Assembly: GCA_049700215.1 (NCBI GenBank)
Contig: JBNAVT010000001.1
Location: forward strand, 17,744-81,743
From: Thermoproteota archaeon
GTDB taxonomy: Archaea; Thermoproteota; EX4484-205; JAAOZP01
DNA: 64,000 bases
Direction: 5' to 3'
This document shows, one piece after another, positions 60,021 through 64,000 of this stretch; position 1 is the first letter of the stretch, and the number at the start of each line of letters is the position of its first letter. The notes beneath the pieces are model-generated. The model did not search any database. It was not told the origin of the DNA and saw nothing but the letters and a program-made list of their open reading frames with translations. Position numbers and translations under genes: made by a program.

Positions 60021-60075
60021 ACTCGCCTCCTCAGAGTTTTAAGCTTTAATAGTTCTCAGCATGGAAAAATGGCTG

Positions 60076-60642
60076 ATGAAGCTAGTGTTCATAACGGGGA
60101 ACCCTGGGAAATTCCTCGAGGCGAGGAGGCTGCTTGAAGAATACGGGATAATTCTTGAACAGGCCGATGTTGAAGTAACAGAGCCGCAGACAGATAGCCT
60201 GGAGGAGGTTGCTGAGAAATGCGCTGAGGAGGCTTTGGAAAAAATTGGTGAAAGCTTCCTAATCGAGGACTCCGGGCTATTCGTAAACTCTCTAAACGGC
60301 TTCCCAGGAGTATACTCCTCATACGTCTACAGGAAAATAGGCTGCGAAGGAATACTCAAGCTTCTCACAGGCTCAGCAGACAGGTCAGCATACTTCATGA
60401 CGGCCCTAGCCTACGGCGAGCCAGGCAAAGGCGTCAAGATATTCACCGGAAGAGTCGACGGAACAATCGCAACAGAGCCACGCGGGAAAAGCGGGTTCGG
60501 TTATGACCCCTTATTCATCCCTCTGGGCTCTAATCTGACTTTCGCGGAGATGAGCACTGAGGAGAAGAACAGGTTTTCCCACAGGGCTAGGGCGTTGAGA
60601 AGCTTTGCGTCATGGTTTCTGAGCAGGCATGAGGAAAAGTAG
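60076..60642 (+). CDS. non-canonical purine NTP pyrophosphatase (ITPase, RdgB/HAM1)
   Basis: FITGNPGKFLEA, EDSGLFV, GFGYDP, SHRARA. Confidence 0.9.
   Translation: MKLVFITGNPGKFLEARRLLEEYGIILEQADVEVTEPQTDSLEEVAEKCAEEALEKIGESFLIEDSGLFVNSLNGFPGVYSSYVYRKIGCEGILKLLTGSADRSAYFMTALAYGEPGKGVKIFTGRVDGTIATEPRGKSGFGYDPLFIPLGSNLTFAEMSTEEKNRFSHRARALRSFASWFLSRHEEK
60575..60620 (+). repeat. direct repeat, left copy (ITPase 3' end)
   Basis: Aligns gap-free with 63515..63560: 16 identical nt, 19 nt partly diverged, 11 identical nt. Confidence 0.8.
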
Positions 60643-61738
60643 GTGTGGCGTCTCGTGTAGAGACTGCCATTATTACGATTACAGACAGCTATGCCCAGGA
60701 TGCGCGATTGAACGTTGTCTCGTAGATTCGTGTCTAAGGGGCATTTCTTTTTCAGGTATTACATACCCCAAATCGTTCTGCAAGTTAAGAGCATATTGTC
60801 CTATTGGAGGGATGCCGAGACCGTTTCCAGTCCTACTTCCCCAATTAAGGAAAAAGGATATGCTTAGGATTAATTTTCCGTCATTCATTCCTCAAATCGA
60901 TATATGGAATCGTGAATCATGGTTTTGGATAGAAGGGGTAGATGCACCTGCTGTTTTTGTACCCCTCTGGCAACTGATTTTTAATAGTAGTTTAATATCA
61001 GAGGCTTCACGTAAAGGTCTTCACGATTTTCTCGGCTTTAATGGAAAAATATTGTTGTCTACGGTTATGCCTGACGAGCTTATTGATAGACTTACAAAGG
61101 ATGATTACTTTAAGCTGATTAAAGAATTAAGACCCGATGCCACAATGATTCCCGATAACTATACTTATGTTGACGCTCCATTATACCAATCTTGGTCTCA
61201 AACTATGCGGTTAATATCGTTTGCAAATGATTTTCTAGATCTCGATATCCCGTTAATCGGCTTAATCAAGGGTGCAAATCTGCGCCAAATCTACGTATCG
61301 CTTAAAAGTGAGGTTGAAATGAATTATGTTTCATTTGTTATGCCTGCGAGAGAACTTTTTGAGCAGGGCTTGTTAAATGATCTTCTTTCTCATGTGTTAA
61401 TCATGTTAAAGAGGTTGGGTAGAGTTAATAATAAAAAACTTGAAATACTTATTTACGGGGTTGGACGAAAGCTTGGGTACAAAGGGATGAGCTATAGTAA
61501 TTTTTCATGGTTTCTTGAAGCCAAACATGGTCTTTATTTTCGAGACGGCAAATTATACGATATGCGTGACGAGAAAATAAGATTTAGGGAGTGTTATTGT
61601 GATGCTTGCGAAGGCAAGATGCCACAGGACCTTATCAATCTATGGGTGGAAAATTCAGAATCTTGTAGAAGAATACTGGCTCTTCATAACCTGCTGGATT
61701 GGCTGAGGAGAAGTAAGAGTTGGGTGGGGGCTCTTTAA
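60629..61738 (+). CDS. TGT-fold (tRNA-guanine transglycosylase / DpdA-like) protein with N-terminal Cys cluster
   Basis: C-terminal ECYCDACEGKMPQDLINLWVENSESCRRILALHNL is CxCxxCx25H, the TGT zinc-site spacing. Alternating beta/alpha pattern upstream. N-terminus CGVSCRDCHYYDYRQLCPGCAIERCLVDSC. Confidence 0.6.
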   Translation: MRKSRCGVSCRDCHYYDYRQLCPGCAIERCLVDSCLRGISFSGITYPKSFCKLRAYCPIGGMPRPFPVLLPQLRKKDMLRINFPSFIPQIDIWNRESWFWIEGVDAPAVFVPLWQLIFNSSLISEASRKGLHDFLGFNGKILLSTVMPDELIDRLTKDDYFKLIKELRPDATMIPDNYTYVDAPLYQSWSQTMRLISFANDFLDLDIPLIGLIKGANLRQIYVSLKSEVEMNYVSFVMPARELFEQGLLNDLLSHVLIMLKRLGRVNNKKLEILIYGVGRKLGYKGMSYSNFSWFLEAKHGLYFRDGKLYDMRDEKIRFRECYCDACEGKMPQDLINLWVENSESCRRILALHNLLDWLRRSKSWVGAL

Positions 61739-61949
61739 TAGATCAGCATAAATCAAGGTTCCGGGAGGGAGACCAGGTTCTAACAGAACGGAAGGAAGAA
61801 TGGGAAGAATGCCGTAAAGAGGCCTATAGCGAGGTGAAGGAATTCGGTGAGTATAAAGTGGCATAACAGAAATTGGAGAATATGAGCTACTTAAAGGAAA
61901 TATCGTTATCTCAACGTTTGTAGAGGCAAGAATAGAAGAAGATAGGATT

Positions 61950-62638
61950 TTGTTTCCTTTGAGCCATGGAACCCTATTAGAAATCTCTTTTAGTGGGATT
62001 AGAGAAATTCTTACTCCTGAGAAGGCGGAATTATGCGGCCTTATAGCTGCAGAAGGCAGCTTATCTCCCTATGAAGGAGAGTCTCGCCAAATCTTCTTTC
62101 ACTCTGCAGATATGGAACTTATTGAAAGGTATATTGAGTTGTTCGAGAAGATTTATAACAAAACTCCGCATATTTACCAAGGTAAGGGCGAATTTATTGC
62201 GGGAATAAAGAATAAAGAGGCATATTACGATCTGAGGGAGATCGGGGCTAAACCGGGCCTTACAGGTACCACGTTCCTTTAAAACATTTAGACGAAGAGG
62301 GTGTTAAGGCATATTTAAGAGGGTTTTTCTCTGGTGATGGAAGCGTAGCAAGGCATGGAAAGTATTCGATTAAACTTAGAATATCCTCAAAGTACGGGGA
62401 TTGCCTAGAGGAGATAAGAGAGGCTTTGGTGAAGATTGGTTTTCAGCCTTCTGAGGTTCGTCTGGATAAGACTTATGGGACACATTATTTGGAGATATAC
62501 GCTCAAGATCGGATAAGGTTTATCGAAGAAATAGGAAGCTATAACCCTGCACATGTAAAGAAATTCGAAGAATTCTTAAAAGCGTATGAGGAGGATAAAT
62601 TAAAGGGAGGAAGACCAAAAAGGAATGATGACAAATGA
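61950..62638 (+). pseudogene. double-motif LAGLIDADG homing endonuclease with one frameshift
   Basis: Motif 1 LCGLIAAEGSL (ORF 61950..62282). Motif 2 YLRGFFSGDGSV lies in frame +2, open from 62252 and continuing into ORF 62426..62638. The shift is in ccgggcc around 62253-62259. Confidence 0.7.
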
Positions 62639-63336
62639 GTAAAATCACTGTTTGGGGATGGGGTGATAAATATGAGGCTGCCAGAGTCAATAGTGAAGCA
62701 TGCGTTGAGAAGTTTTGGAGAGAAGCAACTAAAGAGTGTCGAATAGCTTTAGTGGGTAAAGATCGGCGTGAGGGCATGATTTTTGGAATTGATGTTTACA
62801 CGGATGATCCGAAGAGTGTCGGATTTTTAGTGGAAAGACTACTAAACCTAGTCCTTACAAGAAAAAATAAGGTTTACGAAATTACAATAGAATTTCTTAC
62901 GGAGGAAGTCTCTTATAAGGGACACTTGAAAACACTTGAGGAGATAGAGAAACAGTACGAAACCCTGGCAAGTATATGTATCGAGAAAGTTAAAGACGAT
63001 CCGCGGGTGAAACCATTAACCGGCGGAAGGAGAATACTGGTCTTCCCGGATATGAGCTTATTTATCGAGCTTGAACCCGGGTACGGATTAAGGATGAAGG
63101 TGGGAGTCTTCCACTTCAATTTCGATGAGATGCTTAAATTCATCCAATTACTATCAGAGGATTTGATTAAAAGTAAACTGGCTAAGCGTATTTTAGGTTA
63201 TGGACTTTCGTTGGACATAGATAGGCTCGAGATTTCTGATGTTGATGTTACTGATGATGAGGTTCTGGTGGATCTTGCAGTGTCCGAGTCCGAAAATCTA
63301 ACACTCATTAGTTTTGATTACCATTATTATGATTAA
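62635..63336 (+). CDS. hypothetical 233-aa protein (acidic C-terminus)
   Basis: ATGA overlap with the LAGLIDADG ORF. No recognisable motif. Confidence 0.5.
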   Translation: MSKITVWGWGDKYEAARVNSEACVEKFWREATKECRIALVGKDRREGMIFGIDVYTDDPKSVGFLVERLLNLVLTRKNKVYEITIEFLTEEVSYKGHLKTLEEIEKQYETLASICIEKVKDDPRVKPLTGGRRILVFPDMSLFIELEPGYGLRMKVGVFHFNFDEMLKFIQLLSEDLIKSKLAKRILGYGLSLDIDRLEISDVDVTDDEVLVDLAVSESENLTLISFDYHYYD

Positions 63337-63513: not shown

Positions 63514-63600
63514 CTTTCCCACAGGGCTAGAGCTTTAAGAGCATTCGCCTCATGGTTTCTTAATGAGAAAATCGCGCGCGCTATCCTTTTTCAACCGTAA
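63514..63600 (+). pseudogene. displaced, start-less ITPase 3' end
   Basis: Reads LSHRARALRAFASWFLNEKIARAILFQP*, compared with the ITPase tail FSHRARALRSFASWFLSRHEEK*. Confidence 0.7.
63515..63560 (+). repeat. direct repeat, right copy
   Basis: See 60575..60620. Flanked by GCGC-core motif copies at 63505..63515 and 63574..63583. Confidence 0.8.
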
Positions 63601-64000
63601 GCTTAGCGTGGGGCCCGTTGAGAATGATCTTCAACTTGTTGAGCATCTTCCTGCCGATTACAATATCCTCGACGAGGTCTGGGGCAGACAGGGGTACAAA
63701 GATTTCGTTCAAACCCAAGTCGATTATACGGTTAGCTTCTTCAGATATTAGGAATACTGGGAGCTCGAAAACTTCTCCCTTAATCAAGTGTCCAGGAGCC
63801 TCCATCTGCCTTGTGGAGACCGGCTTAAGGTTAAGGAGGAACTCTGCCAGTTCAAAGTTGGAGTATAAGGCCCCGTCGAAACCCGTGTCGACCAGACCCT
63901 CCACTATGGCGGCTTTACGTAAGTCATGCCTGACTATGAGAAGGCTCATCACAGGTATATCGGGTAGTTTAAAACCGTCAGACAGGACCCCGTCTTCATG
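63581..64000 (-). CDS. retropepsin-like aspartic protease (may extend beyond the window)
   Basis: LVDTGFDGAL (DTG active site) and IVIGRKMLNKLKIIL. The frame stays open upstream of the GTG at 63952 to the window edge. Confidence 0.6.
   Translation of the reverse strand, partial: HEDGVLSDGFKLPDIPVMSLLIVRHDLRKAAIVEGLVDTGFDGALYSNFELAEFLLNLKPVSTRQMEAPGHLIKGEVFELPVFLISEEANRIIDLGLNEIFVPLSAPDLVEDIVIGRKMLNKLKIILNGPHAKLTVEKG

Follow-up and report, generated by a model that had tools for sequence, protein, structure and literature searches.

A TGT-fold protein with replaced exchange residues, encoded by a three-gene archaeal mobile element without a recognisable integrase

Introduction

A stretch of 64,000 nucleotides (nt) from a Thermoproteota archaeon (assembly GCA_049700215.1, contig JBNAVT010000001.1, positions 17,744 to 81,743 of the forward strand), hereafter called the window, carries a gene for a protein with nine cysteines near its N-terminus and, near its C-terminus, the zinc signature of the tRNA-guanine transglycosylases (TGTs). 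The locus raises the question of whether this TGT-like protein exchanges bases in DNA. A sequence-only reading had placed the gene on a mobile, AT-rich island and had proposed a minimal, one-gene relative of DpdA, the TGT-related enzyme of bacterial dpd islands and phages, that would insert 7-deazaguanine derivatives into DNA. The 369-residue open reading frame (ORF), the nine N-terminal cysteines and the CxCxxCx25H-N-L motif were exactly as that reading had quoted them.

Three active-site aspartates are reported to be invariant among TGTs as well as DpdA enzymes, the general acid/base (D95 in DpdA), the base-recognising residue (D130) and the nucleophile (D256), and replacement of either the general acid/base or the nucleophile by alanine abolishes guanine exchange (PMC10164549). 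The equivalent residues are D102, D156 and D280 in the Zymomonas mobilis enzyme and D95, D130 and D249 in the archaeosine TGT (ArcTGT).

The gene proved to be the first of a sharply bounded mobile element of ~2.9 kb that contains three genes, and not part of a large island. Its product has the TGT fold, and remote alignments suggest that only the base-recognising aspartate of the catalytic set has been kept.

Results

The TGT-like protein has the TGT fold and a conserved nine-cysteine domain

When searched as a single sequence, the protein matched the Pfam TGT family (PF01702) at 17.2 bits, below the cutoff of 26.3, and only over residues 297-355, the zinc region. The NCBIfam ArcTGT model (TIGR00432) scored 11.8 against a cutoff of 350 and the PADLOC 'TGT' model gave an E value of 9e-4, while single-sequence searches of the PDB with phmmer, of NCBIfam and of PHROGs returned nothing else of use. 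A family profile built from 50 homologs was required to detect the relationship in the PDB. Its sole match was ArcTGT from Pyrococcus horikoshii (1iq8, E 7e-7), with residues 106-362 of the query aligned to residues 59-318 of ArcTGT, a span that covers the entire catalytic barrel and the zinc subdomain. Weak matches to PF01702 were present in 38 of the 50 family members. The AlphaFold2 (AF2) model had a mean predicted local distance difference test score (pLDDT) of 82.9, with most of residues 70-363 above 90. A Foldseek search with this model ranked 1iq8 first (E 1e-12, TM score 0.65), ahead of dozens of TGT entries from Z. mobilis, and returned, overall, more than 180 TGT structures at E<=1e-3; viral predicted structures resembled the model less strongly than ArcTGT does. 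By fold the protein is a (beta/alpha)8 barrel of the TGT superfamily that includes the canonical zinc subdomain, and a conserved domain with nine cysteines stands N-terminal to the barrel. The TIM barrel that had been anticipated was thus confirmed, and the family comparison gave a fold-level match to ArcTGT although the Pfam and NCBIfam cutoffs were not reached.

The N-terminal cysteines are C6, C10, C13, C22, C25, C30, C35, C51 and C57, in a region that includes CGVSCRDC and CPGCAIERCLVDSC. Among 120 database homologs, all nine were invariant wherever the region was covered, and the zinc ligands C322, C324, C327 and H353 were kept in 105-108 of ~110 homologs, so that neither set can be a chance occurrence. 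The zinc site lined up with those of ArcTGT and Escherichia coli Tgt in both HMMER and hhalign alignments. The chain ends 16 residues past the zinc-site histidine and lacks the PUA and C-terminal domains of ArcTGT. This architecture, together with up to ~10 copies per genome and a distribution over ~14 metagenome-assembled genomes (MAGs) of one clade, bore out the earlier view that the protein is not the housekeeping tRNA enzyme.

The cysteine-rich domain, likewise, is real and conserved. It had no match in Pfam even at E<=10, which excluded DUF3795, radical S-adenosylmethionine (SAM) proteins and ferredoxins as identifications, and the AF2 confidence for this region was low. A Cx3Cx2C motif is present at C6/C10/C13, yet the domain has ~60 residues and precedes a TGT barrel, not a radical-SAM barrel. 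Homologs of ~290 residues that appeared to lack the cysteine domain were start-calling artefacts; by tblastn, nearly every locus encodes the domain in frame, beginning at residue 1-3.

The acid/base and nucleophile positions are occupied by serine

In the HMMER alignment with ArcTGT, the general acid/base D95 (in VDSGSFQ) lay opposite Ser144 (in LLSTVMPD), D130 opposite Asp176, and the nucleophile D249 (in LFDSAS) opposite Ser290 (in SYSNFSW). The hhalign alignment with E. coli Tgt, anchored on the shared motif LHDF..G.IL, again placed Ser144 at the aspartate of TDSGGFQ and Asp176 at the aspartate of FDEC; its register in the nucleophile region differed from that of the HMMER alignment. Residues 288-294 included no acidic residue in any homolog aligned. 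Position 144 was serine in 113 of 114 homologs, and position 290 was serine in 95, alanine in 13, threonine in two and isoleucine in one, never aspartate or glutamate. Asp176, at the position that reads the Watson-Crick edge of guanine, was invariant (121/121). Elsewhere in the pocket, the glutamine that corresponds to ArcTGT Q169 was replaced by an invariant Lys214, and the glycine-rich loop that accommodates the 7-substituent in TGTs by an invariant P239-x-R241-E242.

The residues were mapped from remote alignments at 18% identity. We infer that the guanine-reading part of the pocket has been retained, that both exchange aspartates have been lost to serine and that the pocket has been remodelled. 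Base exchange is not expected because the general acid/base and the nucleophile are replaced, and the protein would belong to the TGT superfamily by fold while standing outside the catalytically active TGT/DpdA group. The catalytic aspartates expected by the sequence-only reading were therefore found in part, the base-recognising one being kept and the other two replaced, and the proposed DpdA-type exchange failed on this point: two of the three invariant aspartates are missing, Ser144 occupying one position and position 290 never being acidic.

The gene belongs to a three-gene unit with a LAGLIDADG nuclease

The order TGT-like gene, LAGLIDADG endonuclease gene (gene 2) and gene for a ~225-residue protein (gene 3) was kept in ~50 loci, the most basal lineages included, and overlapping or abutting stop and start codons link the three genes. 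In one lineage gene 3 lies upstream in divergent orientation. Since the TGT-like gene was always coupled to the other two, the notion of a one-gene module had to be abandoned. The description as a mobile AT-rich island fared better: the DNA is mobile, as set out below, but the 'island' is the three-gene unit itself and its AT-richness is not general. In the window, the GC content falls from ~0.54-0.55 upstream to ~0.40 across the TGT-like gene and the two genes downstream. Over all loci the element has a GC content of ~0.40-0.48 while that of the flanks spans 0.32-0.60, a lack of coupling that is a further sign of mobility, and a strong contrast with the flanks is a property of the group to which the window belongs.

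Gene 2 encodes a protein of ~300 residues with a conserved N-terminus (MGGGS..KQ.ERRF) and two LAGLIDADG motifs, LCGLIA(S/A)(D/E)G and LRGFFSGDG, whose acidic residues were conserved in 28 intact paralogs. Pfam LAGLIDADG_3 matched the ortholog at locus L001 (loci of the survey are given by number) with an E value of 4e-15. Two homopolymer runs of the window copy, at ~61859 and ~62249, have each lost 1 nt, which breaks the reading frame; the copy has no further stops relative to the intact 306-residue L001 ortholog; the frameshifts reflect either very recent decay or assembly error. In a rearranged, dead element elsewhere (L052:7454-9947), gene 2 is split by ~2.5 kb of unrelated DNA that includes a UDP-glucose-dehydrogenase-like fragment and a gene for a secreted-looking protein of 392 residues.

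The gene 3 protein, ~220-225 residues in the family, gave an AF2 model with a pLDDT of 89 that consists of two repeated alpha/beta units. The model had no significant fold match in the PDB (best E 0.02, TM score below 0.3), and the sequence had no match in Pfam, NCBIfam, PHROG or PADLOC. A hidden tyrosine recombinase, considered on account of the C-terminal RILGY, was ruled out, as neither a recombinase nor any other PDB fold was matched by the model and the profile had no PDB sequence match.

No integrase was recognised in the element with Pfam, NCBIfam, PHROGs or PADLOC, which matched only the LAGLIDADG protein and, weakly, the TGT-like protein. No large antisense ORF was seen within the element, and Rfam detected no structured RNA at E<=1. 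The DNA between the repeats held no dpdB, dpdC, que or other preQ0-pathway genes in the ~50 loci, and PADLOC gave no Dpd matches. For each of the three genes, about one copy in four is frameshifted or truncated, and this similar decay fits selfish DNA.

The window element is inserted at the 3' end of ham1

The features of the window locus are collected in Table 1.

Table 1. Positions of the element, its repeats and its key residues in the window
Feature	Position	Strand	Basis or remarks
ham1/ITPase gene, chromosomal target	60061..60642	+	Pfam Ham1p_like E 1e-54; its 3' end is the left repeat
Left att-like (attachment-site-like) repeat	60575..60637	+	last ~60 nt of ham1; local alignment to 63515-63571
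TGT-fold protein gene (gene 1 of the element)	60629..61738	+	369 residues; ORF, profile match to ArcTGT, AF2, Foldseek, >140 homologs
Nine-cysteine N-terminal domain, residues 1-70	60629..60838	+	Cx3Cx2C...CxxCx4Cx4C...Cx5C; presumed metal (Fe-S or Zn) module
Codon Ser144	61058..61060	+	aligns to general acid/base Asp of TGT/DpdA (ArcTGT D95; E. coli Tgt TDSGGFQ Asp)
Codon Asp176	61154..61156	+	aligns to base-recognising Asp, kept (ArcTGT D130; E. coli Tgt FDEC Asp)
Codon Ser290	61496..61498	+	aligns to nucleophile Asp (ArcTGT D249)
Zinc site C322-x-C324-xx-C327-x25-H353, then N-L	61592..61687	+	read from sequence; conserved in homologs
LAGLIDADG endonuclease gene (gene 2)	61720..62638	+	begins within the end of gene 1; frame analysis, alignment to L001 ortholog
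Gene 3	62635..63336	+	233 residues; start overlaps gene 2 stop; in nearly all loci
Right repeat, orphan decayed ham1 3' end	63515..63571	+	still reads SHRARALRAFASWFLNEK

The ham1 gene is intact at the left junction, where its stop overlaps the start codon region of the TGT-like gene by 14 nt, and an orphan ham1 tail follows the element. The tail reads SHRARALRAFASWFLNEK, as compared with SHRARALRSFASWFLSRHEEK and a stop codon at the C-terminus of Ham1, and the two direct repeats share a 46-nt core that is 83% identical (right copy 63515-63560). The same arrangement was present in the orthologous loci L020, L009, L011, L061 and L062. At L011 the three genes lie between perfect direct repeats of 135 nt, the final 135 nt of ham1, which are spaced 2,803 nt apart, while at L061 the orphan tail is decayed like that of the window. 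No empty ham1 site was found; every Ham1 homolog at 74% identity or more carries the element, those in the Ham1-anchored metagenome loci included.

Several further observations concern the borders of this group of elements. Directly after the orphan tail of the window, positions 63563-63571 read ATGAGAAAA (M-R-K) and resemble the start of the TGT-like gene, ATGAGGAAA at 60629; at first, the duplication may have reached as far as the opening codons of the element. Just past gene 3, in the closest relatives of the window element, a copy of 33-48 nt of the segment that encodes the N-domain (codons ~13-25, CHYYDYKQLCPGC) was present at L001:2950-2986, L010:2964-3000 and L020:8687-8734; it may be what is left of a tandem second copy of the element or of a circular junction. 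Beyond the element, positions 63581-63952 of the minus strand hold an ORF of 123 codons with a weak PADLOC 'protease' match (E 0.011) and no Pfam match. It is missing at the equivalent position of L001, where the gene for ribosomal protein S15 comes after the element, so the region downstream differs between close relatives. In two metagenome copies of the window ortholog, L062:771-1870 and L075:261-1360, tblastn returned overlapping segments (residues 1-120 and 95-367) that indicate an internal duplication or a frameshift in the TGT-like gene.

Insertion at tRNA genes and evidence for mobility

Flanking direct repeats of 27-135 nt, 92-100% identical and derived from the target, were found in at least 15 loci; in at least 14 beyond L011 they measure 27-61 nt. 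Most consist of the 3' part of a tRNA gene and a few bases of its trailer, and in at least 24 loci ARAGORN found an intact tRNA gene (Leu, Ala, Val, Met, Arg, Glu, Thr, Ser or Gly) adjoining the unit. The 2.65-2.95 kb between the repeats contains only the three genes. Integration is at the 3' end of a tRNA gene or, in some cases, of a protein gene such as ham1, and the duplication leaves an intact gene at one end of the element and an orphan fragment at the other.

The TGT-like proteins of L041 and L027 are 84% identical, but the former element is inserted at tRNA-Glu and the latter at tRNA-Leu. The tRNA-Glu site of L041, with both chromosomal flanks conserved, holds in L043 and L049 an element that is ~63% identical and lies in the opposite orientation. 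In one genome, sister copies occupy tRNA-Leu and tRNA-Met. The unit is mobile, since close relatives reside at different tRNA genes and distinct lineages occupy one site in opposite orientations. In the methyltransferase/tRNA-Gly group, species-specific substitutions occurred in both copies of the repeat, which indicates homogenisation or re-integration after speciation.

Two sets of tRNA genes beside elements were unusual. ARAGORN reported 'tRNA-???' with odd anticodon loops at L017:7190-7280, L021:5833-5926, L042:5763-5855 and L002:13535-13627, and missed the tRNA genes at L023 and L030, where the T-arm and acceptor sequence is clear in the repeats. Archaeal introns might account for the odd or missed genes, as might their reconstitution as hybrids. 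In the lineage with divergent gene 3 (L005:6896-6953/9718-9775, also L022, L024 and L032), a repeat of 49-58 nt overlaps the coding region for the conserved C-terminus of the LAGLIDADG protein (KPEHVEKL...) and, read in another frame, makes up the final 16 codons of the host's methyltransferase gene upstream. A repeat within the LAGLIDADG gene recalls the SSV-type integrases, whose att site lies within the integrase gene. A T-loop-like motif that seemed common to the non-tRNA repeats was dismissed, the resemblance being within chance expectation.

Distribution and relatives

The distribution scan, made with one genome per species, found 50 loci. They are confined to ~14 MAGs, all of Brockarchaeota-type archaea, a hot-spring group, under various labels with the exception of one mis-binned contig. 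One MAG has ~10 copies, another seven and a third six, all diverged. In a neighbour-joining tree the copies form orthologous groups common to several MAGs; they are old paralogs that are usually inherited at fixed sites. A recently acquired island was ruled out in that form, since the orthologous groups are shared by different MAGs at syntenic sites.

The exceptional contig, L013, is 2,950 nt long, was binned in a MAG of the bacterium Fervidobacterium and carries a complete element, which is inserted at a tRNA-Ser of archaeal type and has a 27-nt repeat. Mis-binning of an archaeal contig, rather than a transfer to bacteria, is almost certainly the explanation. The length of the contig suggested an excised circle, an idea that was rejected because the contig is linear, its ends do not overlap and the copy is integrated at tRNA-Ser. 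Searches of IMG/VR contigs, of GenBank phages (tblastn) and of PLSDB plasmids turned up no relatives, and on this ground a viral or plasmid origin was ruled out.

An exhaustive profile search returned 273 clusters. Outside the Brockarchaeota family these are unannotated, barrel-only proteins, mostly without the zinc subdomain and some of them bacterial, and the distant relatives include fusions of 530-620 residues to a calcineurin-like phosphoesterase domain. One protein of 620 residues is encoded directly upstream of an element on the opposite strand (L002:7666-9528, minus strand; also L003, L004 and L012). Its N-terminal ~350 residues are 27% identical to the cysteine domain and TGT-like protein and are fused to a Metallophos domain; the gene that follows it (L002:5395-7662, minus strand; the same three further loci) encodes 755 residues with weak, coiled-coil-type matches only. 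The fusions suggest a DNA-processing context for this TGT-like fold. A barrel-only relative of 305 residues without the zinc subdomain (L059:6517-9459, also L060) lies right after a ThiF/E1-like gene among small genes of unknown function. This and other relatives matched the PADLOC 'TGT' model (best E 1.6e-7) and may form a separate, unannotated clade of TGT-like proteins associated with conflict systems.

Discussion

A proposed non-exchanging, base-flipping subunit

The reading that we favour, though tentatively, is that the TGT-like protein is a non-exchanging, base-flipping nucleic-acid-binding subunit that serves the integration or maintenance of a new element without an integrase. It would read guanine by flipping it out of DNA, or possibly RNA, and would act with the co-translated LAGLIDADG nuclease in the life cycle of the element. 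Two roles could be envisaged: the protein might recognise the attachment site when the element integrates or excises, or it might shield the duplicated target, which in contrast to that of classical homing survives insertion, from the nuclease that the element encodes. Integration itself would be accounted for most simply by a double-strand break made by the nuclease and repaired by a crossover with the target copy borne by the element. Such 'ends-in' recombination would generate the flanking repeats and keep both identical within a genome. Inert TGT paralogs are known: the eukaryotic QTRT2 subunit and the TGT-like domain of ArcS have kept the zinc site, have lost the exchange residues, and bind or present their substrate. 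Both serve tRNA modification, together with a partner that is either a catalytic TGT or a radical-SAM protein, whereas the protein described here is partnered with a LAGLIDADG nuclease in a mobile element.

Several observations weigh against this reading, 1) with residues mapped at such low identity, it is conceivable that D149/E150 or E242 take over the catalytic part, 2) the polar residues D149, E150, D153, D170, D182, K214, Q220, R241 and E242 are extremely conserved, as in an enzyme rather than a passive binder, 3) neither an empty site (in the fetched loci, the Ham1-anchored metagenome loci and a flank-adjacency screen) nor an excised circle was found, so that integration and excision are deduced from comparative structure only, 4) in group-D elements the repeat overlaps the LAGLIDADG codons for the conserved C-terminus, and repeats are thus not simply target-derived in every case, 5) orthologous copies are mostly inherited at fixed sites and current activity is uncertain, 6) an integrase encoded elsewhere in the genomes and acting in trans remains a candidate and 7) all sequences of the element are derived from MAGs or metagenomes.

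There is a substantial chance, though well below even, that the three proteins constitute a self-contained site-specific integration machine outside the tyrosine, serine, DDE, HUH and Cas1 recombinase classes. The LAGLIDADG protein would then cut, the TGT barrel with its Fe-S-type domain would flip or chemically process a guanine of the att site, and the gene 3 protein, with its novel fold and an invariant tyrosine (Y189), would complete the reaction.

Alternative readings of the TGT-like protein

The conservation noted above lends itself to a different reading, in which the protein is a non-canonical enzyme that modifies DNA or excises a base. It would flip a guanine of the att repeat, use a new catalytic set (candidates are D149/E150, E242, K214 and Ser144/290) with an Fe-S cofactor in the nine-cysteine domain, and mark or nick the DNA to provide immunity from the nuclease or a start for recombination. 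Around 30 polar or aromatic residues are invariant over 121 sequences that are ~40-60% identical, a pattern that resembles an active site, and the nine-cysteine domain, with its Cx3Cx2C motif, is invariant. Self-protection is logically needed, as the target copy survives insertion, and the fusion of distant homologs to a nuclease-type phosphoesterase points to DNA processing. Such an enzyme is nevertheless unlikely: both catalytic aspartates of the only chemistry known for the fold are missing, K214 and R241/E242 appear to map to the base pocket and not to the C1' side of the sugar, an N-domain of 60 residues without a family match is far below the size of a radical-SAM core, and the element holds no cofactor-synthesis genes. 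We consider it improbable to much the same degree that the gene is cargo, for example for defence or addiction, carried by an element on which a host- or virus-encoded integrase acts in trans at tRNA-type att sites. The repeat architecture, in which ~40-60 nt from the 3' part of a tRNA gene are repeated and the gene is reconstituted, is just that of the SSV/pNOB8-type paradigm (PMC3293823); weak matches tie the family and its barrel-only relatives to a PADLOC model of candidate defence systems, and one distant relative stands beside a ThiF/E1-like gene in a neighbourhood like that of conflict systems. However, ~10 att sites in one genome would call for up to ~10 integrase specificities, the same three genes stand alone between the repeats in every lineage down to the most basal, the three show similar rates of decay, which would be expected of genes that each serve the element, and the family was not found in the viral, phage and plasmid collections searched.

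An inert TGT paralog that binds tRNA, either that of the occupied gene or tRNA in general, and that senses or buffers the insertion or uses tRNA to guide the element to the gene, would be in keeping with the closest structural relative, which is the tRNA enzyme ArcTGT and not DpdA. The zinc subdomain, which helps tRNA binding in TGTs, is intact, and tRNA genes are the target of most elements. Several lineages, that of the window among them, instead target the 3' ends of protein genes (ham1, methyltransferase), the protein has neither the PUA nor the C-terminal tRNA-binding domains found in ArcTGT, and the partner is a DNA endonuclease, all of which makes this proposal very unlikely. The proposal from which the analysis started, a DNA transglycosylase like DpdA that would draw preQ0 or some other 7-deazaguanine from the pool of the host and place it in DNA for self-marking or anti-restriction, is the least supported reading and has only a slight chance of being correct. 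The TGT fold, the zinc site, the mobile context and the retained base-recognising aspartate speak for it, and archaea generally make preQ0. Against these stand the serines at the positions of the acid/base and nucleophile aspartates, essential in both TGT and DpdA (PMC10164549), the invariant Arg-Glu that would fill the sub-pocket for the 7-substituent, the absence of DpdB, DpdC and Que genes from the element, the sub-cutoff Pfam and NCBIfam scores and the lack of any DpdA-like match among phages by tblastn.

Comparison with known systems

With ArcTGT and the bacterial TGTs it shares the barrel, the CxCxxC...H zinc subdomain, the base-recognising aspartate and the motifs LHDF..G.IL, PD....(I/F)xD, YG.G and S(W/Y)..(A)K. 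The protein differs from them by serine at both catalytic aspartate positions, lysine for the pocket glutamine, P-A-R-E for the glycine-rich loop, deletion of the helix between strands 7 and 8, the missing PUA and C-terminal domains, the additional nine-cysteine N-domain, and its occurrence in multiple copies on mobile DNA. DpdA is similar in that a TGT fold is encoded on DNA of the mobile or defence type, and the protein described here presumably also acts on DNA. DpdA, however, keeps Asp95, Asp130 and Asp256 (PMC10164549), of which this family has only the middle one, and the element has none of the accompanying dpd or preQ0 genes; structurally the protein is nearer to ArcTGT than to any phage protein.

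Integrases of the SSV1/pNOB8 type leave a repeat architecture at the 3' ends of tRNA genes (PMC3293823), and the archaeal elements that these tyrosine integrases mobilise resemble the present one in insertion site, in direct repeats of ~40-60 nt and in the reconstituted gene and orphan fragment. In contrast, the present element has no recognisable integrase, is only 2.7-2.9 kb in size, consists of three unrelated genes and can reach ~10 copies in a genome, which have diverged and occupy a separate site each. Free-standing LAGLIDADG homing genes likewise encode a two-motif protein with catalytic acidic residues and are selfish, decay-prone and site-specific. In classical homing the target is disrupted and there is no duplication, whereas this element duplicates its target and two further conserved genes always accompany the nuclease. 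Literature searches for elements that combine TGT-like and LAGLIDADG genes, or for mobile genetic elements of Brockarchaeota, found no relevant description, and by these searches the three-gene element is previously undescribed.

Conclusions

The analysis gives reason for caution in annotation, as a TGT fold with a zinc site on a mobile island is insufficient for the label 'DpdA-like' and the pair of catalytic aspartates needs to be checked. The element behaves like one with an integrase but has no integrase gene, and its route of insertion could reveal a new mechanism of integration and, possibly, a compact programmable insertion tool. For the superfamily, a branch in which the exchange residues have been systematically replaced while the base pocket and the zinc module were kept, and to which a conserved nine-cysteine domain has been added, provides a natural test case for a re-purposed barrel. 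If the three proteins do form an integration machine, the TGT fold would have found a third use, beside the modification of tRNA and that of DNA, in an apparatus for recombination or self-immunity.

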